The notes under the pieces: model-generated
The model's input: the letters and a program-made list of their open reading frames with translations, nothing else
What the model was told of the DNA's origin: nothing
Databases searched by the model: none
NCBI GenBank assembly: GCA_963839515.1
Contig: CAWIVN010000030.1
Coordinates: forward strand, 32,040-96,039
Direction: 5' to 3'
Length of the DNA stretch: 64,000 nucleotides
Source of the DNA: an uncultured Chloroflexia bacterium
GTDB taxonomy: Bacteria > Chloroflexota > Anaerolineae > Caldilineales > Caldilineaceae
Made by a program: the position numbers and the translations under genes
In this document: positions 1 through 21,963 of the stretch, piece after piece
Layout of the letters: every line of letters begins with the position of its first letter
How positions within the stretch are numbered: position 1 is the stretch's first letter

Positions 1-2
1 GC

Positions 3-560
3 TTGACCGAAGCTATCCATGCCGCCGGCTATATTATCACCGACCATGCGCCTGATTACGTCGTCTTGGGCGAGACACACGGCTATAACCTGCGCCAGAT
101 CACCCGGGCCATTCGCCTGATTGCGGCGGGAGCGCGCTTTGTCGCCACCAACCCGGACCCATCCGGCCCCGGCGAAGGAGGTATCGAACCGGCTTGCGGT
201 GCGATGGCGGCGTTGATCGAAAAGGCAACAGGCGTGGCGCCGTTTTTTGTCGGCAAGCCCAACCCGCTGATGATGCGCAGCGCCCTCAACTACCTGCACG
301 CCCACTCGGAAGAAACCGTCATGATCGGCGACCGCATGGATACGGATATTGTGGGAGCCGTCAGCAGCGGCTTGGACACCGTGCTGGTGCTCACCGGCGT
401 GACCCAACGCCAGCAAATTGCCAATTACCCCTACCAACCTACCTACGTGTTGGAATCCATTGGCGACATCGACCTGCTAGACGAACAGTTGGAAAAGGCA
501 CAGCGCAAGCAGGACAGGACCAATGAGCGCCAGGCAGCGGTCGATAGTGTAGGCCAGTAG
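3..560 (+). CDS. HAD-superfamily hydrolase (subfamily IIA / NagD-like), 5' end outside the window
   Basis: The ORF runs in from the window edge. Motifs [18 protein letters not shown] and [10 protein letters not shown](VG) match HAD IIA sugar phosphatases. Confidence 0.7.
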
Positions 561-620
561 ACTCAGCAGGATCGGCGCAGCAAGCAGTTACGATCAGCAG
601 CCAGAATTAGTGACGAGGCA

Positions 621-2102
621 TTGTGTATGGCAACAGCAGTAGTGATGCCCAAACAGGGCAATTCGGTAGAGAGTTGCATTATCGTCAACTGGAAGAAGCA
701 CGTGGGAGACACGGTTGCGGTCGACGATGTGCTGTGCGAAGTAGAGACCGACAAGGCGACCATGGACGTGCCCAGCCCGGTGGCAGGCACCCTGCTGGCG
801 ACCTTTTTTAAGGAAGGCGACGACGTGCCGGTGATGACCACCATCGCCGCCGTCGGCGCGGCAGGCGAGGACGCCGCCAGCCTGGCCCCGGCGGGAGCAA
901 CTGCGAGCGTCGAAGCGCCTGCATCGGCACCTGCCGCAGGCACGGCGTTGCCACAAGTGCCTGTGGCCACGCCGGCGCCGGCAAGCCCATCGGCAGGTTC
1001 GGCCACGGGCGCAGCACAGGCCGCCATGCCGGTCAGTGGCGCAGTCTCCACCAGCGGCGAGCCGGTTGGCGTATCGCCGCGCGCGCGCCACCTGGCCGAC
1101 CGCAAGGGGATCGACCCGCTTGGGCTCGCAGGCAGCGGACCAGGAGGACGCGTGATCGAGCGTGACGTGCAGGCCGCCATTGCGGCGCAACCAAAGCTCA
1201 CGCCCGTTGCCAAGGCCATGATAGCGGAGGGTGGCTACGCCGTCCCCGGCCAGGGCAGCGGACCGGGCGGGCGCGTCACGAGCAAGGACCTGGTGAAGGG
1301 CGAGCCGTTTGGAGCGCAGGCGTCCTCGCCTGCATCTGCGGTTCCCGTGCCAGCCGCATTGCCAGTCACAAACACGGGCGAGGACACCCGCGCTCCGCTG
1401 GGAACCGAAGAGGTGGAGGTCGTTCCGGTCAAGGGCGTACGCAAAGTGATCGCCGACCGCATGCTGCAGTCGCTCCAGACGACGGCGCAGTTGACGCTGC
1501 ACGCCTCGGCCGATGCCCGTGCCCTGCAAGCGCTGCGCGCCAGGCTCAAGGTCAGCCCGGAAGCGATGGGGCTGCGCGGCATAACGATTAACGACCTGGT
1601 GCTGCTGGCCGTGGCGCGCACGCTACCGCAGTTCGCGGCCATTAACGCCCTGTTCACAGGCGACGCCATCCACCAGCACATGCACGTGCAGCTCGGCATT
1701 GCGGTGGATACACCGCGCGGGCTGATGGTGCCGGTGGTGCGCCAGGCCGATACACTCAGCCTGCGCCAGCTCTCGGCCGAGACCAAGCGCCTGGCCAATG
1801 CATGCTTGAACGGCAAGGTACTGCCCGACGAACTCAACGGCGGCACATTCACCGTGACCAACCTGGGCGCCTTTGGCGTCGAGATGTTTACGCCGGTGCT
1901 CAACCCGCCGCAAGTGGCCATCTTGGGCGTGTGCAACATCCAGCCCAAGGCGACGGATGTGGACGGTGACATCCAATTTATTCCGCACATCGGGCTGTCG
2001 CTGACCATCAACCACCAGGTGGTGGACGGCGCGCCGGCGGCCCGCTTCCTGCAGGCGCTGGGCCAGGCCATTGCCGCGATCGAGCTTGTTTTGGCGGGCT
2101 GA
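621..2102 (+). CDS. Dihydrolipoamide acyltransferase (E2 of a 2-oxoacid dehydrogenase complex); the likely start is the ATG at 627
   Basis: N-terminal lipoyl domain with [14 protein letters not shown] (lipoyl-Lys motif). Ala/Pro-rich linkers and an E3-binding segment ([29 protein letters not shown]). C-terminal catalytic CAT domain (TNLGAFG ... [13 protein letters not shown]). GAGG lies 8 nt upstream of the ATG at 627. Confidence 0.85.
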
Positions 2103-2107
2103 GCACA

Positions 2108-2536
2108 ATGGAATGCCGGCGAGAGGACGGCTACTTGATCAGCACCGACAAGCAGCGCCTGGATATCGACTATATTCATCGTTGGCTGAGCGAGCAGTCT
2201 TACTGGGCACAGGGGCGCAGCCGGGCGGCGGTGGAGACGAGCATCGCCAACTCGCTCTGCTTTGGCCTGTACCAAGGCGACCGGCAGGTTGGCTTTGCTC
2301 GCATCGTGACTGACTTTGCCAACTTTGGCTGGCTGTGCGACCTGTTTGTCGACAATGAACTGCGCGGGCAGGGTCTAGGCAAGTGGTTAATACAAACAGT
2401 GCTGAACCACCCCGACGTGGCACAAATTCGCGGCTTAATGCTCGCCACGCGTGACGCACACGAACTGTATCGCAGATATGGCTTTGAAATAGTTGGCTCC
2501 CCTGAACGTTTTATGGGAAAAACGCAGAGCGTGTAA
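2108..2536 (+). CDS. GNAT-family N-acetyltransferase
   Basis: 142 aa. Acetyl-CoA-binding-like segment LRGQGLGKWLIQTVL; sits between the E2 and E1 genes. Confidence 0.7.
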   Translation: MECRREDGYLISTDKQRLDIDYIHRWLSEQSYWAQGRSRAAVETSIANSLCFGLYQGDRQVGFARIVTDFANFGWLCDLFVDNELRGQGLGKWLIQTVLNHPDVAQIRGLMLATRDAHELYRRYGFEIVGSPERFMGKTQSV

Positions 2537-2572
2537 CGCATAGAGGAAGAAACTGTACGCGAGAAACAGACA

Positions 2573-5035
2573 ATGACAAAAGCAATTCTGATCGACCCAA
2601 CTGAACAACGAAAGCCCGCCAGCCTGGCAGCGCCTGAGATTCCCATAAACGCCTATAGCTCGGATCCGGCGCAAGAGGCCAAGAAATACGGACGCGACAG
2701 CCTGGTACGCATTTACCGGGACATGGTCTACATCCGCGAATTTGAGACCATGCTCGACCGTATCAAGCGGGAAGGCGCCTACGAGGGGATCGAGTACCAA
2801 CACAAGGGGCCGGCCCATCTCTCGATCGGTCAGGAGTCGGCGGCCGTGGGCATGGCGTACAACTTGACGGCGGAGGACTTTATCTTTGGCTCGCACCGCT
2901 CACACGGCGAGATCCTGGCCAAGTCGCTCTCCGCCATCACCAAGCTCTGTGACGACGATCTGCTGGCGATTATGCGGTCGTACATGGGCGGGCGCACCCT
3001 ATCGGTCGTCGAAGGCTTTGCCAAGGCCGGTGACGTCCAGCAGCTGGCCATCAACTATGTCCTATACGGTGCGCTGGCCGAGATCTTCGGCAAGATCACC
3101 GGCTTTAATAAGGGGTTGGGCGGCTCCATGCACGCCTTCTTCCCGCCCTTTGGCGTTATGCCCAACAACGCCATCGTCGGCGGATCGGGCGACATTGCCA
3201 CCGGTGCAGCGCTCTTCAAGCGCATCAACCGCCAGCCGGGCATCGTCATCGCCAACATTGGCGACGCCTCGATGGGCTGCGGGCCGGTGTGGGAAGGCAT
3301 GATGGTGGCGGCGATGGACCAGTACCGCACGTTGTGGCCCGAGGACATTGGCGGCGCACCGCCGATCATCTTCAACTTTATGAACAACTTCTACGGCATG
3401 GGCGGCCAGCCGATCGGCGAAACCATGAGCTTTGGCGTGCTGGCGCGCGTTGGCTTGGGCATCAATCCTGACGGCATGCATGCCGAACGCGTAGATGGCT
3501 ACAGCCCGCTGGCCGTGGCCGACGCTATCGAGCGCAAGCGCAAGATCCTGGCCGAGGGCCGCGGGCCAGTGCTGCTCGACACCATCACCTACCGCTTCTC
3601 GGGCCACTCGCCGTCGGATGCCTCGGCCTACCGGACCAAGGAAGAGGTAGACCTGTGGCGCGCAAATGACGCCATCATCGGCTATCGCGAGTACCTGGTC
3701 GACAACGGCCATGCCTCCGAGCGTGAGCTGGACGACATGGTGCAGGGCACGATCGAGCAGCTCAAGATCGTGCTGACCGCCGCCATCTCACCCGAGCTCT
3801 CCCCGCGCATGGCGATCGACGGCGAAGAAATCGCCGAGGTGATGTTTAGCAACAAGCAGCGCGAGCGTTATGCCGAGCGCGCACCCGAGGTGCTGCTGCC
3901 GCTGGAGGAGACGCGCTGGAAGCAGACGCAGGAGAAATTCCGCTTTGGGCTGGACGAGCAGGGCAAGCCGACGTCCAAGCTCAAGACGCTCACGTATGCC
4001 GAGGCGTTGTTCGAGGCGATGATCTACCGCTTCTACCAGGACCCGACCATGGTGGCATTTGGCGAGGAGAACCGCGACTGGGGCGGCGCGTTTGGTGTCT
4101 ACCGCGGGCTGACCGAGGCGCTGCCTTATCACCGGCTGTTCAACACCTCGATCTCCGAGGGGGCAATCGTGGGCGCCGGCACGGGTTACGCCTTGTGCGG
4201 CGGCCGCGCCGTCTCCGAGCTGATGTACGCCGACTTTATGGGGCGGGCAGGCGACGAGATATTCAACCAGATGGCAAAGTGGCAGTCGATGTCGGGCGGC
4301 CTGCTGGAGATGCCGTTGGTACTGCGCATCTCGGTGGGAGCCAAATACGGGGCGCAGCACTCGCAGGACTGGAGTGCGATGGTAGCGCATGTGCCGGGGC
4401 TCAAGGCATTCTTCCCGGCCACACCGTACGACGCCAAGGGCATGCTCAACCTCGCCTTGGCCGGCAGCGACCCGGTGGTGTTCTTTGAGAGCCAGCGCTT
4501 GTATCCCGAGACAGAAATACTGGTCGAGGGAGGCGTACCCAAGGGCTATTATGATGTGCCGTTGGGCGAGCCGGCCGTGCGGCGCAAGGGCAGCGACCTC
4601 ACCATCATTACGATCGGGGCCACGCTCTACCGGGCGTTGGATGCGGCCAAGGTCTTGCAGGATAAGTATGGCTTGTCGGCCGAAGTGATCGACGTGCGCT
4701 TCCTGAACCCGCTCAACTACGGCCCGTTGGTCGAATCGGTCAAGAAGACGGGCAAAGTCGTCGTAGCCAGCGACGCCACCGAGCGTGGATCGTTTGCGCA
4801 CACGATCGCGAGCAATCTCACGCAGCTGGCCTTCGACCATCTCGATGGGCCGCCCGCCGTGGTCGGCTCGCGCAACTGGATCACCCCGGCGGCAGAGCTG
4901 GAGGACATGTTCTTCCCGACCCAGGAGTGGATCGTGGACACGATACATGAGCGAATCCTGCCGTTGGCGGGGCATGTGGTGAGCACGCGGCAGGGAACGG
5001 GGGAAATTCTCTCGCGCAACCGGCTGGGTGTCTGA
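2573..5035 (+). CDS. TPP-dependent 2-oxoacid dehydrogenase E1 component with alpha and beta subunits fused (820 aa)
   Basis: N-terminal half is E1-alpha (GSHRSHG, TPP-binding [13 protein letters not shown]). C-terminal half is the E1-beta / transketolase-like pyrimidine-binding and C-terminal domain ([11 protein letters not shown] ... [21 protein letters not shown] ... [13 protein letters not shown]). Confidence 0.85.
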
Positions 5036-6090: not shown

Positions 6091-6273
6091 CGCAGTTCAA
6101 TCCATATAGCGAAGCTCAAAAATAGTATATAATCGTAAAGTATCGTATTTGCCTTGTGCATGGTATGTCAGGCGTTGTGCATTCGCCAATCCGGCGGACA
6201 ACCTGCAGTCGTACATTGGAGCGATATCAATTCAACAGTTTGACCGACGGTTCGGGTAAGATAAGACGCCATC

Positions 6274-6891
6274 ATGAAGGAACTCTTCGCCACGCACGGC
6301 TCAATCGAAGCCTCCCCGGCTACATTGGTGCAACGCTGCCTGCAAGGAGATGCCAACGCCTGGCGCCAATTGGTGGATCGCTACGCGCGCCTTGTCCACT
6401 CGGTGCCTGCACGCCATGGGCTTAGCCCTGCCGAGATAGAAGACGTGGGGCAAGAGGTCTTTTTGGCACTGGCGCAAAACCTGCACTCTATCGAAGATCC
6501 TGACCGCCTGCCCGCATGGCTGGTCACCACGGCCCGGCGCCTCTGCTGGCGTATGGTGCAGCGCCAACGCCGCGAACAGTCGCTCGACGAAGAGCCTGAC
6601 AATGGAGATGAATACACGTCGCGCCGTGAGCTCATCAGCCCACTGCAGACCCCTGATGAAGCTGTGGAAGGTTGGAACCGGCAGGCGATCTTGCATGCAG
6701 CTGTCGCGCGCCTGGGCGAACGCTGCCGCAGACTGATCGAGCTGATCTTCCTTGATACCCGCGAGCCCAGCTACGACGAAATCAGCGCCCTGCTGAACAT
6801 CCCCAAAGGCAGCATAGGCCCGACGCGCACTCGCTGCCTGAGCCAGCTCCGCATCCAACTGGGTGAAGAGGATCTCTTAGGTGACGAATAG
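6274..6891 (+). CDS. ECF-type RNA polymerase sigma-70 factor
   Basis: Sigma region 2 (LVDRYARLVHSV ... EDVGQEVFLAL ... PAWLVTTARRLCWR) and region 4 HTH (EPSYDEISALLNIPKGSIGPTRTRCLSQLR). Confidence 0.8.
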   Translation: MKELFATHGSIEASPATLVQRCLQGDANAWRQLVDRYARLVHSVPARHGLSPAEIEDVGQEVFLALAQNLHSIEDPDRLPAWLVTTARRLCWRMVQRQRREQSLDEEPDNGDEYTSRRELISPLQTPDEAVEGWNRQAILHAAVARLGERCRRLIELIFLDTREPSYDEISALLNIPKGSIGPTRTRCLSQLRIQLGEEDLLGDE

Positions 6892-6972
6892 CAGAGTTCG
6901 CGTATCTTTTGCCAGGGGAAAATGCTCTTATATTGCAGGATGAGTTAATTCGCTACGATTGAGGCGCTATAC

Positions 6973-7596
6973 ATGACGCATTTGGCCCCCCAACTACTAT
7001 ATACTCTAGCCTTCGATTCCAAACCGTTGGAAAGCGACGCCGAGCAGCACCTGGCTGCCTGCACTGCCTGCCGCCAAGCCTTGGCCGACCTGCGGGCGCT
7101 GGCCGAGGAGCTGAGGGTTATGAAGGTGAGCGAACCGTCACCCGCGGCGCTTGAACGCTACTATGCGGCGCAGTCGCTCATACAGCAGCAACCTTCGCGC
7201 CTCGGCGTCATGTGGCGCAACGTTTTGGCCATGCTTACGTGGGACAGCCGGCAGCAGGCGGCCTTGCAGGGCGTACGCAGCGGTGCAGGCAGCACGGCCT
7301 ATCGCCTCCTCTATGCTACTGAACAGGCGGAGATAGAGTTGCTGATCGAGCCGGAAGGACGTGCGTTCCGCACCCAGGGCGAAATCATTGCCGGCCAGGA
7401 GCCGGACGCAGCCGGCACACCCGTGACCCCGGCATTGATTCAGTGGATCGACGCGCAGGGCGACATCCGGTACGAAACGGAATCTGACACAAGCGGTCTT
7501 TTTTCGCTGCGCAACATTGCGCCCGGCATCTACCGGCTGTCCATCGTTTCCGCGGCCAGCGACATAATCGAAATTGAGGCGCTGGAGATCATGTGA
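6973..7596 (+). CDS. Putative zinc-finger (ZAS-type) anti-sigma factor, soluble, with a C-terminal carboxypeptidase-regulatory-like beta domain
   Basis: HLAACTACRQ matches the H-x3-C-x2-C ZAS motif and lies directly downstream of the ECF sigma gene. No predicted transmembrane segment. C-terminal FSLRNIAPGIYRLSIV resembles a CarbopepD_reg-like fold. Confidence 0.55.
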   Translation: MTHLAPQLLYTLAFDSKPLESDAEQHLAACTACRQALADLRALAEELRVMKVSEPSPAALERYYAAQSLIQQQPSRLGVMWRNVLAMLTWDSRQQAALQGVRSGAGSTAYRLLYATEQAEIELLIEPEGRAFRTQGEIIAGQEPDAAGTPVTPALIQWIDAQGDIRYETESDTSGLFSLRNIAPGIYRLSIVSAASDIIEIEALEIM

Positions 7597-10583
7597 TGTC
7601 GGACAGTTATAGCGGTGGATTGACAGGTGGCTTGACGAGCGAACTACTCACGCAGCTTGCCGACCGGCCCACCGAAGAAGCTTTAGCCACCCTCACCGCC
7701 AATGGATTGCTTACTACGAGCGCAGCCGCACAGGCTGCGCAGTTAGTATTGGCTGGTGCAGCCACACATCCGGTTCAAGTCGCACGTTGGCTGCCCCTGA
7801 TCGGCGCCATGGTTGCAGCGACCGGCGGCGATCCGGCAACGGCGGCCGATCTGGCCTATGCGCGTTCGCGCCTGGCACTCGAACAGGGTGATCCGGCGGC
7901 AGCCGAGACTTTACTACAAGAGGCGCGCAGCCTTTGGCAGCAGGCCGGCGACGACGCCAGCGTAGCGCGCACCGGTGTGGGCATGACGCAGCTGCTGGCG
8001 ATGCAGGGCCGTTTCGAAGAAGCAGAGGCGACCATTCGCACGTCGATTGCCGCGCTGTCCGCGCTGCCCGGCGAAGAAGTCAGGCTCATACAGATGGACG
8101 CACGCCAGAACCTGGCGACACTCCTGAGCTATCAGGAACGGTTCGTCGAGGCGGCCGAAATCAATAATGACTTGCGCCAAGGCTATCTGAGCTTGCTGGC
8201 GCAGGCCAGGTATCCAGCAGAAGCAGTTGACTTGCAGACGCGCCTCGCCCTGGTCGAACGCGACCTGGCCCTGGCGCATACCTATCTTGATCAACCACAG
8301 GTGGCGGAGACGCTGCTTGAGGGTGCCGTGGAGCGCCTGAGCTTGCCCGAGGTGCGCATCGATCGCGGCCAGACGCGCACCAATCTTGGTCACCTCTATG
8401 TACGCACGGGCCGCTATGCCAGGGCCATTGCCGAGTTGGACGCGGCCACAATTGACCTGCTGGGAACGGTGGATGTCGACAGCGTGCCTGATCTCTGGCC
8501 GGCGGCCGACCTTCTGTTCCTGGAACAGGCATCCGCCTACCTGGTGCTCAACCTGCTGCCTGAAGCCGAAGCCGCCCTGCGCCGCGCCCAGGAGATACTG
8601 CGAGCCACGGAGCAGACGTATGAACTCGGCCAGGCGCTATATCTATTAGGGATATTGGAATGGCGGCGCAATAACATTGGCGCAGCCGGCGCAGCGTTGG
8701 CGGAAGCGGAAACCATCTTTGCGCAACTGGACAACATCTATTGGTTGCATCGCGTCCGCCTGGCTCAGGCGGCGTTGGCGTTACGCAGCGGCGACAGCGA
8801 CGATGCCACCCGTCGCATAGACCTCCTGCTGGCGGATCAGGCACCGACTGGGGAACAGACAGCAGCCGGCGATCAGACTGCCCTTGCCTGGGACCAGTCT
8901 ACAACCTGCGATCTCTATCTGCTCGACGCTCGCCTTGGATCGGCTACCGGCGACCTGGCGCGAGCACAGCGCGCCGTCGATGCGGCTGTGAATGCGCTGG
9001 GCCTTTCTTCGCTTGAGGAAGGCACAACGAGCCTGCCTCATCTGCACCTGCAAGTGCTGCATGCGGCCGGCCAAGTCGCGCGCGCCCAGGGCAGACTTGA
9101 CGACGCACGCAGGCTATTCGTGCGCACGCTCGAGATCGTCGAGGCGCAGCGCGGATTGCTGCCGATCGAAGAGCTGCGGACAGCGTTCCTCACCGATAAG
9201 ACTGCGATCTATGTCGACCTGGTATTAAGCCTGTTGGACCTGCCAGAAGCGGATCCCGGCACCATTTCCGACGCATTTGCCGTCGTGGAGCGATCCCGAT
9301 CGCGTGCCCTGCTTGAACGGCTGCTTACGTCGGTAGACGACATGCAAGCCACCAGCGACTTAGCACCGGACGTGCGCGAGCTGGTTACCGAAACGCGCCG
9401 CCGGCTCTACTGGCTGTATAACCAGCTTTTAGGTGAAGAAGGTGGCAGCCGCGGCTCGGCGCCGGCTATCTCGGACGAGATCCGTGCCCACGAAGCAACG
9501 TTGCAGCGACTTGAGTGGCAGCGCACGCAATGGCTGCAGCAGGCGCGACCGGTCACGCTTGCGGATCTACAGGCCAGCCTTGGCAGCGACCAGGCAGCGT
9601 TGGTCTATTTTATCGCCAGCGACGAGGTGATGGCATTTGTCGTTTCACCTGCCGAGGCCAAAATTGTGCGCAATTTAGCGACCGTTGCGGCGCTCGACGA
9701 TGCGCAGGCGCAGTTGCGATTCCAACTGGGACGCGTCGAAATTGGCTCCGGCTACCAGGAGCGGCATCAAGCGCGCCTGCTGGAGGGTGCGCGCAACGCG
9801 CTGCGCCGCCACTATGACCTGCTTATTGCGCCGCTGCTGCCGCACCTGGCAGAACAAGCACCCGAGCGCCTGCTCGTGATTCCCTATGGATCACTGCACC
9901 TGGCTCCTTTCCATGCTTTCTGGAACGGCAGCGAGTATTTGCTGGAATCCTATGAAATCTCGTATGCTTCCAGTGCCAGCCTGGCCGTGCAGGTACGCGA
10001 GACGGACAAGGCCGGCATGTGCTCACTGGCGGGCGTCGCATTGCGCGACAAAGCCATACCGCAGGCGGAAAGCGAAGTACGCGCAGCGGCGCTCCACTTT
10101 GACCAAGCGCAGCTCTACCTGGACGAGCAAGCGGGTTTGGCAGGATTGTGGGAAGCCGCGCAGGCGGGCGATGTGCTGCATATCGCCACACACGGCGTAT
10201 TTCGTCCAGACAACCCGTTTTTCTCGGCACTTAAGCTGGCCGACGGCTGGATCGACGTGCGCACGATCTACCGGCTTCCGCTCCAAGCCCGGCTTGTTGT
10301 GCTCAGTGCGTGTGAGAGCGGTGCTGTCCAAGTGCAGGGCAGCGACGAGGCAATTGGACTCGTGCGCGGTTTTCTGGGCGCAGGCGCCGAAACATTGCTC
10401 GTCAGTTTGTGGAACGTTCACGACGCCAGCGCCGCTATATTAATGGACGAATTTTACGGACAATTGACGGGGCATGGGACGCGCCCGGCTGCGGCCCTGC
10501 AAACCGTACAGCGTAAGGCCGCCCGGAGCAACCGCCACCCATACTATTGGGCCCCCTATGTGGTAATGGGCGATTCGAGTTGA
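7596..10583 (+). CDS. TPR-repeat protein with a C-terminal CHAT (caspase-like) protease domain, about 996 aa
   Basis: Long helical repeat N-terminal region of about 700 aa, then a CHAT domain. LLVIPYGSLHLAPFHAF ... HIATHGVF (catalytic His) ... LVVLSACESG (catalytic Cys). Its GTG/ATG start overlaps the anti-sigma stop (ATGTGATG at 7591-7598). Confidence 0.8.
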   Translation: MSDSYSGGLTGGLTSELLTQLADRPTEEALATLTANGLLTTSAAAQAAQLVLAGAATHPVQVARWLPLIGAMVAATGGDPATAADLAYARSRLALEQGDPAAAETLLQEARSLWQQAGDDASVARTGVGMTQLLAMQGRFEEAEATIRTSIAALSALPGEEVRLIQMDARQNLATLLSYQERFVEAAEINNDLRQGYLSLLAQARYPAEAVDLQTRLALVERDLALAHTYLDQPQVAETLLEGAVERLSLPEVRIDRGQTRTNLGHLYVRTGRYARAIAELDAATIDLLGTVDVDSVPDLWPAADLLFLEQASAYLVLNLLPEAEAALRRAQEILRATEQTYELGQALYLLGILEWRRNNIGAAGAALAEAETIFAQLDNIYWLHRVRLAQAALALRSGDSDDATRRIDLLLADQAPTGEQTAAGDQTALAWDQSTTCDLYLLDARLGSATGDLARAQRAVDAAVNALGLSSLEEGTTSLPHLHLQVLHAAGQVARAQGRLDDARRLFVRTLEIVEAQRGLLPIEELRTAFLTDKTAIYVDLVLSLLDLPEADPGTISDAFAVVERSRSRALLERLLTSVDDMQATSDLAPDVRELVTETRRRLYWLYNQLLGEEGGSRGSAPAISDEIRAHEATLQRLEWQRTQWLQQARPVTLADLQASLGSDQAALVYFIASDEVMAFVVSPAEAKIVRNLATVAALDDAQAQLRFQLGRVEIGSGYQERHQARLLEGARNALRRHYDLLIAPLLPHLAEQAPERLLVIPYGSLHLAPFHAFWNGSEYLLESYEISYASSASLAVQVRETDKAGMCSLAGVALRDKAIPQAESEVRAAALHFDQAQLYLDEQAGLAGLWEAAQAGDVLHIATHGVFRPDNPFFSALKLADGWIDVRTIYRLPLQARLVVLSACESGAVQVQGSDEAIGLVRGFLGAGAETLLVSLWNVHDASAAILMDEFYGQLTGHGTRPAAALQTVQRKAARSNRHPYYWAPYVVMGDSS

Positions 10584-10598
10584 GACAGGAGGAACACT

Positions 10599-12239
10599 AT
10601 GCGGCCAGTAACTCGTGGCAAACGCCGCATCCTGACAATGATGACCATGTCCGCCGCCGTCATAGTGACGGCGACGCTGTTACTGACGCTGCGCGCAGTA
10701 GCCGCCAACATGGTAGTCAGCCCACTGGGCAGCACGGCAAGCACAGTATATTCCCCCCCTGATACCTATCGGCTGCAAGATACCGGCAGAGGCATTTTGC
10801 GCGACAGCATAGGATTTAACAGTTCGGATCGCCAAGACAACAAGAACAAGGTGACCGGCATCGTGGTGTTGTCTCCCACAAGTGGTTTCTCAGGCACATG
10901 GCAGATTCTTGAGGCCGGTCAGATTGTGACTGTGGTCGTGACGGCGGAGACTACCGTCAAGGATTTCAACGACGTGCGTCCGGAGCTCGGTGACTGGGTG
11001 GAAGCGAAGGGGCGCCCGCAAGCAGACGGCACGCTACTGGCGCGCAAGTTTCGCCCGAACAGATATGAGTCTGCGGAGGTCGTGGCGCGTCTGGCGGTCA
11101 CGGCCGTGCTCACGGATGTGCTAAACCAGTACCAGGCGGTCCAGTTGACGCCGATCCAGTCGTTGTTGTCCTCGGCCAGCATCTATCGCTTTGCCATCGG
11201 CGAAGATTATGACGAAATTTCGGTGACCACGGCGATGGAAAAAGATACGGCCAACTTCGTTTGGGCCGAGGTGAACTTCGTAAGCGAGGTGCCGTCCGGC
11301 AATCCATATCGCACCTGGAAGTGGGGCAGCGACGATCCCACGGGCTACATCAGCCAAAATGCGTTTACGCAGGTCAATCTATTGGAGGCTCAAGGGTTGT
11401 ATTCCGGCATTGGAGTAACGGTAGCCGTGCTGGATACCGGTATTGATGCCAATCATCCCGTGTTTGCCGGCCATCTCTTGGCCGGCCGTGACCTGGTTAA
11501 CGACGACGACGTGCCGCAAGATGGACCAGAGGCGGGCGAGCCAGGCGGCGATGCGCAAGGCCACGGCACGCATGTCAGTGGCGTGATCGCACACATTGCG
11601 CCCGACAGCATGATCCTGCCCATACGCATTCTTGACGTCGATGGGCGCGGCAATACCTTTGTTCTAGCTTATGCCGTCGATTGGGCGGTGGCGAACGGCG
11701 CCGGCGTAATCAACATGAGCCTGGGGTCGGACTCCGACTCGCACGTACTGGGCGAATCGATACAGCGTGCGCAGAGCCAGGGTGCGGTCATTGTAGCGGC
11801 GGCCGGCAACGACAACGCCGAAACGCCGAAGTACCCGGCAGCATATCCTGGCGTGCTTGGGGTTACCGCCGTAGACGATGCCAAGCACAAGGCAGAATTC
11901 GCCAACTATGGCACCGGGTGGGTCGATCTGGCTGCACCTGGGGTGGGCATTACTTCGACGGTGCCCGTCTCAGGTTCGATCCTGTATGGCACGTGGAGCG
12001 GCACGTCGATGGCCACCCCATTTGCAGCCGGAGCCGCCGCCCTGGTGCGGCAGTCCCTGCCCGACGCCAGGTCATCGGAAATTGCCGATATTTTGGTTCA
12101 ATCGGGGAGCGACCTGGATCCCGACAATCCGGGTTACACCGGAAAGCTGGGGCGCCTGCTGGATATCGGCGCCGCCTTGCCGGACACGCTGCCGCAGAAA
12201 CCCATCAAGTTGTTCTTGCCCTCCGTGATTGGCGGGTAG
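10599..12239 (+). CDS. Subtilisin-like S8 serine peptidase with N-terminal signal anchor, beta-module and I9-type propeptide
   Basis: Catalytic triad motifs AVLDTGID (Asp), HGTHVSGVIA (His), GTSMATPFAAGAAAL (Ser). Hydrophobic N-terminal anchor. Strong RBS GGAGGA 6 nt before the ATG. Confidence 0.85.
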   Translation: MRPVTRGKRRILTMMTMSAAVIVTATLLLTLRAVAANMVVSPLGSTASTVYSPPDTYRLQDTGRGILRDSIGFNSSDRQDNKNKVTGIVVLSPTSGFSGTWQILEAGQIVTVVVTAETTVKDFNDVRPELGDWVEAKGRPQADGTLLARKFRPNRYESAEVVARLAVTAVLTDVLNQYQAVQLTPIQSLLSSASIYRFAIGEDYDEISVTTAMEKDTANFVWAEVNFVSEVPSGNPYRTWKWGSDDPTGYISQNAFTQVNLLEAQGLYSGIGVTVAVLDTGIDANHPVFAGHLLAGRDLVNDDDVPQDGPEAGEPGGDAQGHGTHVSGVIAHIAPDSMILPIRILDVDGRGNTFVLAYAVDWAVANGAGVINMSLGSDSDSHVLGESIQRAQSQGAVIVAAAGNDNAETPKYPAAYPGVLGVTAVDDAKHKAEFANYGTGWVDLAAPGVGITSTVPVSGSILYGTWSGTSMATPFAAGAAALVRQSLPDARSSEIADILVQSGSDLDPDNPGYTGKLGRLLDIGAALPDTLPQKPIKLFLPSVIGG

Positions 12240-12259
12240 CAGCGCTCGTTTCGGCCACT

Positions 12260-12476
12260 TGGCCGGTCTATTGCACCAAGCCAAGCAGCCATTTGTCGAA
12301 TTCAACGAAATCTCGTATGCTTCCAGTGTCACCTTTTGTACGGGCCGAAACGGAACAAAAATATGGCGTGTTTCGTCCCGGCAGACCGTACAGCGTGAGT
12401 CTGCCCCTGAGCAATCGCGACCCATACTATTCTCTATGTAGTGATGGGTGATTCGAGTTGAAACAGGAGAAACACT
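12260..12476 (+). pseudogene. Decayed remnant of the 3' end of the TPR-CHAT gene plus the duplicated RBS region (product of a tandem segmental duplication)
   Basis: Blocks GAAATCTCGTATGCTTCCAGTG (12306-12327 vs 9953-9974), ACCGTACAGCGT (12376-12387 vs 10503-10514), CCCATACTATT, and GTGATGGGTGATTCGAGTTGAAACAGGAGAAACACTATGC (vs 10560-10601) are homologous to the end of the CHAT gene and the S8 leader. Confidence 0.6.
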
Positions 12477-14478
12477 ATGCAGCCGGCAGCACATGAAAAG
12501 CGTAGAACCCTGGCGATAGTAATTCTGTCCTCCACTATTTTGGCCGTGACGCTCCTTTTGACGCTGCGCGGGACTGCCGCCTATGCTTGGTCTAGCCATC
12601 CATCCAACGCGCCTGCGGCAGTGGATTCCGCGCCCAGTGCCAGCGGGGCGTTCGGCGCCGGCGAAGCGGTTCTACGCGATTCCAGGCAACAAGATGCCGC
12701 TGCAAAGAACAACAGACCGGTAGTCGGCATCGTGCTGAGTGGCCCGACTACGGGTTTTGCCGGCACCTGGCGAATACTTGACTCCGGCACAGTCGTGACG
12801 CTCACCGTTAACTCTGCCACAAATGTCAAGGCCTTTAACAGTGTGCCGCCGAAAAGAAACACTTGGGTGGAAGCCAGGGTCACACAGCAGGCTGATGGTT
12901 CGTTGCTGGTGCGCAAATTTCGCGCCAACAAGTTCCAGCCAGGTGAGGTCGTGGCCCGGCTGACTTCAACGGCGGTGCTCAGCGAGGTGTTGACAAAGTA
13001 CCAAAAATACCAGCTGATGCCATTGGAATCTTTGCTTTCGTCAGTGAGAATATATCGTTTTGCGATTGGCCTGGATCAAGATGAAGCAACAGTAGTCGGT
13101 GCAATGAAGGCGGATTCTGCCAACTTTATATGGGTAGAAGTCAACTTCGTCAGTGAAATCCCGACCGGCCCGCTTGCCAACCCGTATCGTACATGGAAAT
13201 GGGGCAGCAGCGACGAGACAGGTTATGTCAACCAGAATGCCCTGCAACAAATAGATCTCCTGCCGGTACAGGGCGTCTACTCGGGAACCGACGTGATCGT
13301 GGCCATCTTAGATACTGGTATTGACGCCACGCACCCCGTGTTCGCCGGGCGCGTACTGCCTGGAATCGATCTGGTCAACGGCATCATCTCTCCGACCAGC
13401 GACATCATCTCTTCGACCAGCGACATCATCTCTTCGACCAGCGGCATCCCCACTGACCAAGTGCCGCAGGATGGCCCAGAGCCGGGCCAGCCAAGTGGAG
13501 TTCGCACAGGGCCACGGTACGCACATCAGCGGCATCGTGTCGCTCGTTGCGCCCGAGAGCAAGATCCTGCCGGTGCGCGTCCTCGATGTCGACGGCCGTG
13601 GCGACATGTTTGCGCTGGCTCAGGCTATTGTCTGGGCCGTCGACCATGGCGGCGCTTCCGTAATCAACATGAGTCTGGGCACGGAGGATGATGCCGGCAT
13701 TCTGAAAGAGATCATTGCATACGCCCAAAGCAGAGGCGTTCTCATCGTAGCGGCAGCCGGCAACGACAACGTGGATAAGCCCCAATATCCTGCTGACTTC
13801 CCGGGCGTGCTCGGGGTTACCGCTGTGGACGACGCCGGGCAGAAGGCGGACTTCGCCAACTATGGCAGCGAGTGGGTTGATTTGGCGGCGCCGGGTGTGG
13901 CGATCACCTCCACCGTGCCGGTATCCGGTTCCGTCTACTATGCCACATGGAGCGGAACGTCGATGGCCGTGCCCTTCGTATCCGGAGCCGCCGCGCTTGT
14001 GCGCCAGGCTTCGCCTGATGCTCAACCGGCTGAGGTCAGTAACCGGCTGGTCCAGACAGGCCGCAATCTGGACGCCTTGAACCCAGGCTATGTAGGAAAG
14101 CTAGGGCGCCTGCTTGACGTAGATGCTGCCGTGCTGAATATAGTGCCGACAACTTCTGTACCGACGCTCGAACCGACGCTCGAGTCAACACCACTACCGA
14201 CTACTACTGTGGCGGTGACACCCGTCAATTCTGATGTGCAGACGGTCACGCCTGTGCCGCCAACACCTGTACCACCCACACCGACGTTCACGCCTACCCC
14301 CATGTTGGTGGTAACGCCCGCACCACCGACGACACGGGAGCCAACGCCGACAGTGCTGCCGCAAACGCTAACGCCAATGGTATTGCCGCAACCGACACAG
14401 CTGCCGGAACCGCCGCCGCCAGGTCCGTTGCCGGATGCTCCGCCTAGACTTTTCCTGCCACTGCTGTCCGGCGGTTAG
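12477..14478 (+). pseudogene. Second S8 subtilase paralog, split by a frameshift near 13485-13500 (two ORFs 12477-13691 and 13321-14478); Pro/Thr-rich C-terminal tail
   Basis: Frame 0 carries the signal anchor, propeptide and AILDTGIDATHPVF (Asp). The reading frame shifts by one nucleotide position; the downstream frame carries GHGTHISGIV (His) and GTSMAVPFVSGAAAL (Ser). The junction is DGPEPGQPSGVRTG / SQVEFAQGHGTH. Confidence 0.7.
13383..13445 (+). repeat. Perfect or near-perfect 21-bp tandem repeat x3 (ATCATCTCT(C/T)CGACCAGCG(A/G)C) inside the S8 paralog, encoding (I)ISxTSD x3
   Basis: Read directly from the sequence. It is inserted at the position corresponding to NDDDVPQDGPE of the first subtilase. 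Confidence 0.85.
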
Positions 14479-14745
14479 TCCGGACTACACTCATGTGTCC
14501 CTGGGATCTGCGAGATCCTGGGGACATTTTTTTGCTGCGGGTGCCGTTGATTGGCGTACGCCCCATGTCCGGCAGCCATATGCCGTCTGTACGTACACAA
14601 GCCGTACTCCGAACGCCGCAGTTGTGTGGACGTTTTTTGTATTTTCCAAGCATGTGTCGATCTCTTGTGAGTCAGCCGTGCAAATCTGGCCAGTGCGATG
14701 CCGTTCGATTGCACGCGATATCACACAAATCCAAGGAGGATTACG

Positions 14746-16197
14746 ATGGTTAAAGAAGCGAACACGAAACGTTGGTGGCGACTGTCGCTGACCGTGCTGT
14801 TTGCCGGCATCTTGCTGCCCCTGTTCGGTATGACGGCCCATGCCGGCGCAGCCGGTTGGGGTGGCGCCCTGCATGCCGAGACTGTGCTGCCGGGCGCCGA
14901 GCAAGATGACCATGGCGGCAACGGCGGCGGTGATGATAACGGCGGTAACGGAGATGGGCGCGAGTTCAAAGGTATTGTCGAAGCAATGCCCGAAGGTACC
15001 CCAGTCGGCTCGTGGACCATCAGCGGCAGCGTCTACAACGTCACCGAACAGACCGAGATCAAGGAGAAGTACGGCACGATCGGCGAGGGGACATGTGTAG
15101 GCGGCGAATGGTCCGCAGACGAAACCTACGTGCGTGAGCTTCACTCCACGCGCGAACTTGTGTGTAAGCCCGGCAGCGACGACAACGGCGGGAGTGGCGG
15201 CAGCGAAGGGCGCGGCGAACTTTACGCCAAGTTGGACAAATTCCCACCTGAATTGATCGGCAACTGGGTCATCGGCAGCCTTACCTTCAAGGCTGACGCC
15301 AACACCGAGTTCAACGAGAAGAACGGGCCGTTCACGCTGGAGGAGTTCGTCAAGGTAGAGTTTGTGATTTTACAGGACGGCACTTTCCTGGCCAAGGAAA
15401 TCAAGACCGTCGGCGTAGCACATGACGACGATGACGATGGTCCCGGCCACAGCCATGGCCATGACCGTGATGACATCGAGCACCAGGCTGTGGCTTTTGG
15501 CGTCATCGACAGCCTGCCAGCAGAGAGCGGCGAGGGCGTGTGGCAGATCGGTGGGGTCACCTACACCGTAACCATCTCGACCCAGTTAGAAGCGCAGCAC
15601 GGCCTCTTTGAGCAGGACCGCAACGTACGCGTCAAGTACTGGGTGGACGAATTCGGCAATCGCGTGGCCAAGCATATTAAGTCCATGCCGCCGGCGGCCG
15701 GTGGCAACCCGCAAGGCGTGCTCAAGCTGGTAGGCTTTGTCACCGATATGCCGGATGAGGCTGATGGCTTTATCGGCGAGTGGACAGTCGGCAATGTGGT
15801 TCTCGTGGCCGACCAAAGCAGCAAGTTTGACGAAGAGGATGGTATGCTGGCGGTGGACGCCTTCGTGGAAGTCAAATACCGCAAGGACGGCACCACGCTA
15901 CGTATCGTCGAGATGGAAACGCATGTCATGCCGGGTGGCGGCGACGACGACCATATCGGCAAGGTCGAGCGCATGGACGACAGCATGGCAGCAGCGGGCG
16001 CAGCAGCAGCAACTGCCACGTGGCGTATCGGCGGGAATGACTATGTGGTAACCGATGCGACGATGGTTGGCAACGTCGCGGCGGGCGACACGGTGCTGGT
16101 TAACAGCTACACTGATGCAAGCGGCGCCCAGGTGGCCACGCGGATTAACGACGTGACGTTGGACAACTTGCTCTTCCTGCCGACGGCTTCGCGTTAA
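14746..16197 (+). CDS. Secreted protein made of about 6 tandem beta-rich modules of roughly 60-70 aa each (DUF5666-like); function unknown
   Basis: Signal peptide after the ATG at 14746 (AAGGAGG RBS 6 nt upstream). Recurrent module, for example WTISGSVYNVTEQTEIKEKYG / WQIGGVTYTVTISTQLEAQHG / WRIGGNDYVVTDATMVGN. Confidence 0.6.
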   Translation: MVKEANTKRWWRLSLTVLFAGILLPLFGMTAHAGAAGWGGALHAETVLPGAEQDDHGGNGGGDDNGGNGDGREFKGIVEAMPEGTPVGSWTISGSVYNVTEQTEIKEKYGTIGEGTCVGGEWSADETYVRELHSTRELVCKPGSDDNGGSGGSEGRGELYAKLDKFPPELIGNWVIGSLTFKADANTEFNEKNGPFTLEEFVKVEFVILQDGTFLAKEIKTVGVAHDDDDDGPGHSHGHDRDDIEHQAVAFGVIDSLPAESGEGVWQIGGVTYTVTISTQLEAQHGLFEQDRNVRVKYWVDEFGNRVAKHIKSMPPAAGGNPQGVLKLVGFVTDMPDEADGFIGEWTVGNVVLVADQSSKFDEEDGMLAVDAFVEVKYRKDGTTLRIVEMETHVMPGGGDDDHIGKVERMDDSMAAAGAAAATATWRIGGNDYVVTDATMVGNVAAGDTVLVNSYTDASGAQVATRINDVTLDNLLFLPTASR

Positions 16198-19906: not shown

Positions 19907-21486
<1,580 letters not shown>

Positions 21487-21490
<4 letters not shown>

Positions 21491-21963
21491 AATTGGGCGC
21501 TGTATTGCTGCTGAATATTTTGGTGGCCTTGGTGTGGCAGGCGATGCAGCCGGTGGCGGGACCGGGCGACTATATTCTGGGCTTTGTCGTCGGCTTCCTG
21601 ATGCTGGCGATCCTCTATCGGCCGTATGGCCGACGCACGTGGGCGGCGTCGACCTATGCCGTGTTCCTGGTGTGGGAGATCGTGAAGAGCAGCTTCCAGG
21701 TTGCGGGCATCATCCTATCGCCGCATGCCCACCTGCGCCAGGGAATCGTGGCCATTCCGGTGGAACCATGCACGGACTTCGAGTTGGCGCTGCTTGCCTC
21801 GTCGATCACGTTAACGCCGGGAACATTGAGCATAGACGTGGAGAAGACTGCCAGCGGGCAGCGGGTGCTGTATGTACATAACCTGGTCGTGGACGACCCG
21901 GAAGAGATGCGGCGCCAGATTAAGGCTGATTTCGAGCGGCGTATCATGCGCTTTACGCGTTAG
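21487..21963 (+). CDS. mrpE: Mrp antiporter subunit E
   Basis: MKLGAVLLLNILVALVWQ ...; ATGA overlap with the mrpD stop; size and hydrophobicity typical of MrpE. Confidence 0.7.

Follow-up and report, generated by a model that had tools for sequence, protein, structure and literature searches.

The locus examined here lies within a 64,000-nucleotide stretch of DNA from an uncultured Chloroflexia bacterium of the Caldilineaceae (assembly GCA_963839515.1, contig CAWIVN010000030.1, positions 32,040 to 96,039), referred to throughout as the window; all coordinates are those of the whole window, and gene order was taken from its open reading frame (ORF) listing together with Pfam and NCBIfam scans. 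On the + strand, the gene of a sigma factor belonging to the extracytoplasmic function (ECF) type is followed by genes for a 207-aa protein, a tetratricopeptide repeat (TPR)-CHAT protein and a subtilase of family S8 (S8-1), then by a 237-nt spacer, a second subtilase gene (S8-2), a terminator-like hairpin, a gene for a protein with DUF5666 repeats and an Mrp antiporter operon. Our analysis concerns the spacer, which holds a second, decayed version of the 3′ end of the CHAT gene, and the two subtilase genes that flank it, which a preliminary description of the sequence had taken to be the products of a recent duplication of an effector gene. The features on which the argument turns are the following.

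7593–10583, + strand: TPR-CHAT gene, 996 aa (Pfam CHAT 5e-57 plus TPR families); the remnant derives from its 3′ end.
9937–9978, + strand: CHAT-internal original of block A, with TTGCTG (9939–9944), 18 nt and TATGCT (9963–9968), encoding YLLESYEISYAS; 86% identical to 12291–12331.
10492–10598, + strand: 3′ end of CHAT and CHAT/S8-1 junction, original of the leader and ribosome-binding block; 81% identical to 12374–12476 over 108 aligned positions.
10599–12239, + strand: S8-1, the ‘short’ subtilase, 546 aa (Pfam Peptidase_S8 3e-51, DUF5666 8e-8).
12240–12476, + strand: spacer between the S8 genes, 237 nt, holding the CHAT remnant.
12240–12290, + strand: 5′ part of the spacer, without detectable CHAT homology (no high-scoring segment pair to CHAT), with a weak hairpin GGCCA-CT-TGGCC.
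12291–12331, + strand: remnant block A, with a −35-like TTGTCG (12293–12298), a 17-nt spacer and a −10-like TATGCT (12316–12321); kept across nine spacers.
12332–12373, + strand: 42 nt replacing 513 nt of CHAT, as delimited by blastn and the spacer alignment.
12374–12476, + strand: remnant 3′ block, made up of decayed last CHAT codons and the S8-2 translation-initiation region (GGGTGATTCGAGTTGA, AGGAG at 12465–12469).
12477–14478, + strand: S8-2, the ‘long’ subtilase, 666 aa if one base is removed; split as sequenced, and a member of the long clade.

Pairwise blastn of the two halves of the duplicated region gave significant homology. The region 12374–13348 matched 10492–11470 (64% identity, E 2e-28), 13455–14007 matched 11505–12053 (72%, E 8e-78) and 12291–12331 matched 9937–9978 (86%, E 9e-8), so that segments 9937–9978 and 10492–12053 are set against 12291–12331 and 12374–14007 in the layout of a tandem segmental duplication. 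The best segment pair between remnant and CHAT scored 91 bits; when the remnant was shuffled 100 times, the scores were 14 ± 7, with a maximum of 24. The homology to the CHAT end and S8 leader that had been claimed for 12260–12476 therefore stands, except that its detectable start is 12291, not 12260. Each of the three short blocks described as shared is found at exactly two places in the 64 kb (9954/12307, 10503/12385 and 10538/12421), and the roughly 40-nt ribosome-binding region put at about 90% identity is identical at 38 of 43 positions (88%). The subtilases are paralogous over their full length, as had been stated; S8-1 and frame-corrected S8-2 share 57% amino acid identity over 543 positions. 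The internal deletion of about 0.5 kb noted in the second copy was also recovered: where CHAT has 513 nt (9979–10491) the remnant has the 42 nt of 12332–12373, leaving approximately 0.47 kb missing. The missing stretch includes the codons for the catalytic His (10185) and Cys (10305), the motifs ATHG and SACESG being encoded from these respective positions, and the CHAT frame of the remnant is broken by +1 and −5 indels, so that it has neither the His-Cys dyad nor an open frame of a CHAT domain. These matches support a duplicated unit that would have started inside the CHAT domain and extended through the S8 gene.

That the second copy is an expanded repeat created in assembly, which the preliminary description had named as a refuting alternative, deserves virtually no credence, since nothing was found in its favour, the copies are only 64–72% identical (28–36% divergent) in nucleotides, the C-terminal architecture of copy 2 differs from that of copy 1, and the arrangement recurs in independent ENA, JGI, NCBI and Logan assemblies.

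The age of the duplication was assessed from relatives found by homology search, which gave S8 pairs lying on the same contigs, with 5 loci from a genome collection scan and 10 from a metagenome scan, and from neighbour-joining trees of S8 proteins with bootstrap, in which S8-2 was frame-corrected. The pairs found in relatives consist of a short protein of ~530–547 aa and a long one of ~610–670 aa. S8-2 fell in the long clade with 100% bootstrap, and S8-1 in the core short clade (78%) as sister to P0002 (100%). The full order of CHAT, short S8, spacer (233–308 nt), long S8, DUF5666 and Mrp is seen in five loci (L001, L002, L003, L005 and L008); short S8, spacer and long S8 are present in L011, L012 and the contig of P0006, the nearest relative of S8-2, while L010 comprises only the spacer and the long S8. 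Altogether, at least nine other assemblies from Caldilineaceae-like Chloroflexota have the pair with its spacer. Caldilineaceae/Caldilinea loci at a greater distance (L006, L007 and L013–L018) have sigma factor, anti-sigma, CHAT, a single S8 and DUF5666. Given a single S8 in the distant loci and a pair in many loci of the clade, the duplication is, as read from these gene orders and trees, one that arose within the clade and yet before at least a dozen lineages had diverged. A reservation on its timing comes from the early-branching proteins P0009, P0031 and the L004 short S8 (P0030), whose placement relative to the short/long split has only 25–40% bootstrap.

The reading of a recent duplication in this strain, with a CHAT remnant decaying neutrally, drew on the short blocks, which are 86–88% identical between CHAT and remnant within this genome. 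The gene bodies, however, share merely 64–72% of nucleotides and 57% of amino acids, many assemblies contain separate orthologues of either copy, with the spacer conserved, and the two-clade phylogeny and synteny already refute it, so that we regard a recent origin as very improbable. The copy-number comparison with related strains that had been suggested as a check gave both copies with the spacer in many relatives. What had been presented as a recent effector duplication is instead an old, conserved paralog pair, and loss, relocation or disabling of its members has occurred independently from lineage to lineage. L020/L021, the closest relative (76% nucleotide identity over the CHAT 3′ end and S8-1), has CHAT, short S8 and DUF5666 without a long S8; at L020 1993–2902, P0002 (72% amino acid identity to S8-1) is directly followed by the DUF5666 gene. 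This loss suggests that the long copy may be dispensable. In L004 (3000–4577 and 10001–12019), a long S8 lies directly after CHAT and a short S8 lies between the E1 dehydrogenase and ABC genes, with no CHAT remnant found upstream of this displaced short gene; recombination between the CHAT 3′ end and the remnant, after transposition of the short copy, may have given this layout. L013 (5310–11673) carries an independent S8-DUF5666-S8-DUF5666 duplication, the S8 genes of which are sisters (100% bootstrap; 77% nucleotide identity); its unit begins 6 nt after the CHAT stop and hence carries no CHAT remnant, and ahead of the second pair lie a separate terminator and TTGGCT-17-TAGAAT, which is promoter-like.

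Alignment of nine spacers revealed blocks that are invariant or nearly so, the remaining spacer being divergent. Block A, which has the form GCAATTTGCCATTTTCCTATATAnCnCGTATGCTTCnAGTG in the spacers, is read as TTGCCA-17-TATGCT; in L002 and L011, where it has 9 of 12 consensus matches, a consensus scan calls it promoter-like, and it occupies the same aligned position in all nine spacers. We infer that block A may serve as a sigma-70-like promoter, with transcription predicted to start downstream of it. Read-through from upstream would also be likely to reach S8-2, since no strong terminator after the short S8 was found in the window scan and no terminator-like site in 12240–12290. The possibility that the ECF sigma factor encoded in the cluster recognises block A as its promoter was considered and set aside, no comparable motif being present upstream of the sigma gene in six loci.

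Downstream of block A, the spacers share a leader with a long-range helix.

12337–12392, + strand: candidate leader RNA helix from RNAalifold, pairing TGTACGG (12337–12343) with CCGTACA (12386–12392).

This helix has 11 pairs, of which 4 are changed on both sides, with 87.5% of cells paired. For the leader structure as a whole, 92.9% of cells are paired compared with 34–55% when the 3′ partners are slid, 6 of the 32 pairs change on both sides and covariation is 0.267 compared with 0.04–0.11 in slid controls, figures that come from about four lineages and a structure obtained from the same sequences. The minimum-free-energy fold of the window's leader contains the helix (z = −1.9). All relatives have a GTAAGC-loop-GCTTAC hairpin (~50 nt) in their spacers that has been lost from the window, and a CAACYGCGC block forms a third leader feature of the alignment. 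At the 3′ end, GGGCGATTnnAGTTGAnnnnGGAG is kept in all nine spacers, with 7–8 nt between it and the ATG. It represents the region of translation initiation, which at the junction of CHAT and the short S8 also spans the last CHAT codons. There, the CHAT stop codon TGA (10581–10583) lies 15 nt before the S8-1 ATG, with the Shine-Dalgarno sequence AGGAGG at 10587–10592. On this comparative evidence the leader and its helix may be functional. Rfam gave no match at E ≤ 1 in window positions 9800–14800 or in the L002 spacer.

Coding explanations of the spacer conservation did not hold. No ORF is conserved across the spacers, and in L005 and L011 a TAA directly follows TATGCT; a 70-codon ORF at 12229–12441 was rejected as a small gene for this reason. 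A mini-ORF, considered for translational coupling, reads YVVMGDSS* in the window with only synonymous changes, but its ATG and frame are not kept in the other spacers, where an extra G is present in L001, L002 and L008 and other frames in L010, so that conservation is at the nucleotide level.

The stretches retained in the remnant are also those most constrained in intact CHAT genes. In a comparison of eight CHAT genes of the clade, 176 codons are degenerate and keep their amino acid, of which only 25 (14%) show no nucleotide change, and the two best 8-codon windows of invariance, 9936–9966 (TAT TTG ... GAA ... TAT GCT) and 10518–10542, are both stretches that the remnant has retained. The CHAT homologue of block A (TTGCTG-18-TATGCT, 9939–9968) is invariant at synonymous sites in all eight genes, whereas outgroup CHAT genes, which have a single S8 next to them, use CTG or CTC for TTG and GCG, GCA or GCC for GCT. 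This coincidence of synonymous invariance with the retained blocks points to action at the DNA or RNA level for S8 expression, and the stretches most likely represent cis-elements that would already have resided in the CHAT coding sequence before the duplication. Internal promoters occur within the coding regions of operons, and the sigma-70-like element in CHAT, 640 nt upstream of S8-1, resembles these in lying inside a coding sequence, where it shows synonymous-site invariance; by comparison with them it is a putative element, with a moderate consensus match (TTGCTG-18-TATGCT). Of the S8 promoter and ribosome-binding site that had been placed inside the CHAT coding region, the latter is borne out by translation signals overlapping the last CHAT codons, and the former is plausible, as judged from the conserved sigma-70-like element and the synonymous invariance.

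Several observations nevertheless weigh against regarding the remnant as a set of expression signals kept by selection. The nine spacers stand for only about four independent lineages, the consensus leader structure was scored on the very sequences that had yielded it, and the synonymous-site test was designed after the blocks had been seen. The element of the window itself, TTGTCG-17-TATGCT, has a weak −35 (8/12 matches) and falls below the promoter-scan threshold. Relatives also conserve the 17 nt between the two hexamers, which a plain promoter does not need; block A may accordingly bind a regulator, instead of or besides acting as a promoter. In addition, the window's remnant is more CHAT-like than those of relatives: its last 105 nt are 82% identical to its own junction, 76–78% to other junctions and 63–72% to other spacers, where the other spacers are 62–74% identical to junctions over the same length, and its block A is 75–82% identical to CHAT genes against 66–77% to other spacers. 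The variants GAGC and ACACTATG are found only in the window's two copies. Part of the similarity between CHAT and the remnant may thus be due to gene conversion and not to constraint.

Taken to its full extent, the latter idea would give the remnant no function of its own, its likeness to CHAT being upheld by occasional conversion of this adjacent direct repeat from the protein-constrained CHAT 3′ end. We consider this unlikely, though it would explain why the window's spacer is nearer to CHAT sequences than to its orthologous spacers. The same blocks are kept among the spacers of other lineages, which are clearly unlike their own CHAT genes (block A 69–76%, the middle block not detectably similar), and conversion would not yield the conserved features specific to spacers, namely TTGCCA, TCCTATATA, the hairpin and CAACTGCGC. 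The tree also permits an ancestral state, with L010 and the rest forming a clade (92%) that excludes the window. Either the window lineage kept more of the ancestral spacer state or a short conversion tract from CHAT refreshed its remnant, and both fit the sequences; this CHAT-like state is why the blocks had looked recent.

The two proteases differ in their condition. S8-1 has intact Asp, His and Ser motifs (DTGID, HGTHVSG and GTSMATP; PF00082 174.7 bits, cutoff 21.8), an N-terminal hydrophobic signal or anchor (KD19 2.11, residues 11–29), a DUF5666-like region and the C-terminus ...LFLPSVIGG. S8-2, which has a Pro/Thr-rich C-terminal extension of ~120 aa, is as sequenced two ORFs, 12477–13691 (signal, N-terminal region and Asp) and 13321–14478 (His and Ser); the Pfam S8 match is divided over both and the catalytic triad is not in one frame. 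Two lesions, both overlooked in the preliminary description, were located in it.

13382–13448, + strand: 21-nt × 3.2 tandem repeat, in frame (IISPTSD IISSTSD IISSTSG), in the Asp-His loop (Tandem Repeats Finder score 120, 95% matches).
13500–13506, + strand: +1 frameshift, one extra base in GTTCGCA, between catalytic Asp and His, identified by comparison with orthologues.

Deletion of C13503 restores ...PSGVAQGHGTH, in agreement with the family consensus xGxAxGHGTH, and gives the 666-aa protein. The 63-nt repeat insertion occurs in none of ~19 relatives inspected, which read D(L/F)VxDDxxPQDGPE at this place, and lies 55 nt upstream of the frameshift. In the protein database S8-1 is present at 100% identity (P0001, NCBI and ENA), while the best match for either S8-2 ORF is 66%, which fits a pseudogene call in the deposited annotation.

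Against a disabled S8-2 it may be argued that the frame after the shift is open for 325 codons to the native stop with all conserved motifs kept, and that relative-rate tests were mostly non-significant, giving no clear acceleration; together these imply a frameshift that is either very young or an assembly error. The latter, in which both proteases would be intact and functional in the organism, is a serious contender that we place somewhat short of even chances, and the long-read metagenome-assembled genomes (MAGs) among the relatives (L001, L003, L005 and L008) are indeed full of such frameshifts. However, other long genes of the window are intact where those of the MAGs are broken (E1 dehydrogenase 820 aa, CHAT 996 aa, MrpA 875 aa), the site is not a homopolymer run, a second lineage-specific lesion lies close by in the same gene, and the sister lineage L020/L021 is without the long S8. 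For these reasons we lean towards a real frameshift, and S8-2 is probably a very recent pseudogene. Separately, in L001, L003, L005 and L008 (one ENA metagenome assembly and MFD-named MAGs) the E1 dehydrogenase, CHAT, S8 and MrpA genes are each in pieces, and because of these many apparent frameshifts gene integrity there is unfit as biological evidence.

Taken together, the observed homology, age, synteny, conservation pattern and two lesions make it quite probable, in our judgement, that an old tandem duplication left two copies that were both long kept, that pieces of CHAT were preserved as cis-elements of S8, and that S8-2 has been damaged in this genome. The locus is a conserved Caldilineaceae-type cluster of ECF sigma factor, ZAS-like anti-sigma, TPR-CHAT protein, S8 protease or proteases and DUF5666 protein, the last two kinds being secreted. 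In an ancestral member of the clade to which the window belongs, a tandem duplication of ~2.3 kb would have run from inside the CHAT domain (near 9937) through S8, the cis-elements embedded in CHAT supplying the duplicated unit with expression signals of its own. The copies would then have diverged into a short form beside CHAT and a long form with a Pro/Thr-rich linker and a strong terminator after it. The CHAT fragment before the long copy lost its catalytic core and reading frame, while selection would have preserved three pieces, the sigma-70-like element, the structured leader and the ~45 nt surrounding the Shine-Dalgarno sequence. The long copy of this genome, as sequenced, carries the young 63-nt repeat insertion and, before the catalytic His, the +1 frameshift. 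A stronger version, in which the CHAT 3′ coding sequence doubles as an S8 expression cassette (internal promoter, leader and initiation region), the fragment is kept purely as such a cassette, and the helix and hairpin constitute an undescribed cis-regulatory RNA for the long S8, is offered tentatively and we hold it to be doubtful.

Tandem segmental duplication can leave a truncated fragment of the upstream gene. The present locus agrees with this in having a direct repeat whose unit takes in the end of one gene and the whole of its neighbour, a partial copy that degenerates, paralogs that diverge, and lineages that lose a copy (L020) or rearrange (L004). Unlike the general case, parts of the fragment here have been maintained without coding function throughout the existence of the paralogs, and they match nucleotide-constrained stretches of the parent coding sequence. 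Nothing in this is surprising in kind, the event being an ordinary old segmental duplication with the modest twist that a coding fragment would have been retained as a regulatory cassette; it may nonetheless be a natural example of parts of a coding sequence surviving without coding constraint, and it hints at S8 cis-elements hidden in CHAT.

The remaining genes of the cluster and its terminator are as follows.

6274–6891, + strand: ECF-type sigma factor, first gene of the cluster (Pfam Sigma70_r2 1e-12; NCBIfam sigma70-ECF 3e-24, above cutoff).
6973–7596, + strand: putative cytoplasmic anti-sigma, 207 aa, bearing a ZAS-like HxxxCxxC motif close to its N-terminus; the C-terminal part is CarboxypepD_reg-like.
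14495–14527, + strand: strong intrinsic-terminator-like hairpin after S8-2 (terminator scan), 15-bp stem and T run.
14698–16197, + strand: secreted DUF5666-repeat protein (Pfam DUF5666 2e-24, three stretches), syntenic in relatives and ending ...LLFLPTASR.

The ECF sigma gene is syntenic in all related loci. The 6973–7596 translation contains HLAACTAC, its Pfam CarboxypepD_reg match is weak (2e-5, below cutoff), and the stop of the gene overlaps the TPR-CHAT start. No hydrophobic segment of transmembrane grade was found in the sigma factor, the anti-sigma-like protein (maximum KD19 1.33) or the CHAT protein (maximum KD19 1.49). A signal or anchor segment is found at the N-terminus of each S8 protein and of the DUF5666 protein, which is the conserved downstream partner of the S8 gene or genes. 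L002 has an equivalent hairpin, of 20 bp, 3′ of its long S8, and the terminators in both genomes point to an operon that ends with this gene.

No description of the cluster was found in the literature searched. On the basis of domain content, the characterised system nearest to it is DdvS/DdvA from Myxococcus xanthus, in which an ECF sigma factor is paired with a ZAS anti-sigma fused to a periplasmic TPR-CHAT part (PMC11506125). Like that system, the cluster encodes together an ECF sigma factor, a Cys/His zinc-type anti-sigma motif and a TPR-CHAT protein of ~1000 aa. Unlike DdvA, the anti-sigma-like protein (6973–7596) and TPR-CHAT (7593–10583) are here separate ORFs, have no transmembrane segment and are cytoplasmic, so that there is no single ZAS-transmembrane-TPR-CHAT polypeptide, although an ECF sigma factor with an adjacent HxxxCxxC partner is present. 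The genes next to them are those for secreted S8 proteases and a DUF5666 protein, not CBASS or CRISPR genes as in DdvS/DdvA. By analogy, 6274–10583 looks like a split cytoplasmic DdvS/DdvA module, which may act as a protease-controlled sigma switch for the secreted S8 and DUF5666 genes; the analysis in this way flags an uncharacterised Chloroflexota cluster resembling known protease-controlled sigma-factor switches.

In Craspase, Csx29 cleaves Csx30, and the system is linked to an ECF sigma factor. The present locus is similar in that a TPR-CHAT protease adjoins an ECF sigma factor. The type III-E CRISPR Craspase includes the TPR-CHAT protein Csx29 (PMC10028731), and Csx29 is the only NCBIfam match of the CHAT protein (1.8e-15); its score of 56.8 is far below the model cutoff of 300, and membership of Csx29 was rejected on this ground. 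The flanks examined showed no CRISPR genes.

As subtilases of family S8, the proteases are thermitase/mycosin-like in their DTG, HGTH and GTSMA motifs (PF00082 3e-51), and some relatives are annotated as thermitase; all NCBIfam equivalog matches for the S8 proteins were below cutoff (mycosin 182, cutoff 279). They differ from typical members in a family-specific N-terminal DUF5666-like region and a conserved [YF][LM]P tail at the extreme C-terminus. Among the S8 homologs (P0001–P0145), 141 of 145 end in [YF][LM]P and only 4–6 further residues (e.g. ...LFLPSVIGG and ...YLPAVIGK), and the end of the DUF5666 protein, ...LLFLPTASR, is alike; the tail sites in the window are at 12213–12239, 14452–14478 and 16171–16197. 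No NCBIfam model matched the C-terminal tail of the S8 or DUF5666 proteins, and the shared tail could be an undescribed sorting or processing tag of the secreted proteins of the locus.

In the divergent region 6100–6273, between the ABC transporter gene and the sigma gene, the conserved blocks GTATATAAT, CATTCGCCAATCCGGCG and TTGACCGnCGGTTCGGGTAAGAT are common to six loci and are probably regulatory sites of the cluster, to judge from their conservation; none of them resembles block A of the spacer. At the other end, MrpD (frame 2) and MrpE (frame 1) at 19907–21960 are separate genes overlapping by ~25 nt, and in L002 they form a single 699-aa fusion. Separate genes appear to be the normal state, so that a further frameshift in the window was rejected here, and an indel may be present in one of the two assemblies, the window's or that of L002.

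Other genes were seen in relatives at the upstream flank. Beside the ABC transporter gene of L002 (positions 1–3839) lies what looks like a diversity-generating retroelement cassette, comprising a reverse transcriptase (RVT_1), the accessory protein bAvd and a NACHT/FGE-sulfatase protein of 909 aa; the window has no such cassette at the corresponding place. In L022, a BrnT/CopG-type toxin-antitoxin pair and an MqsA-like helix-turn-helix gene (3042–4352) lie between the E1 dehydrogenase and ABC genes.

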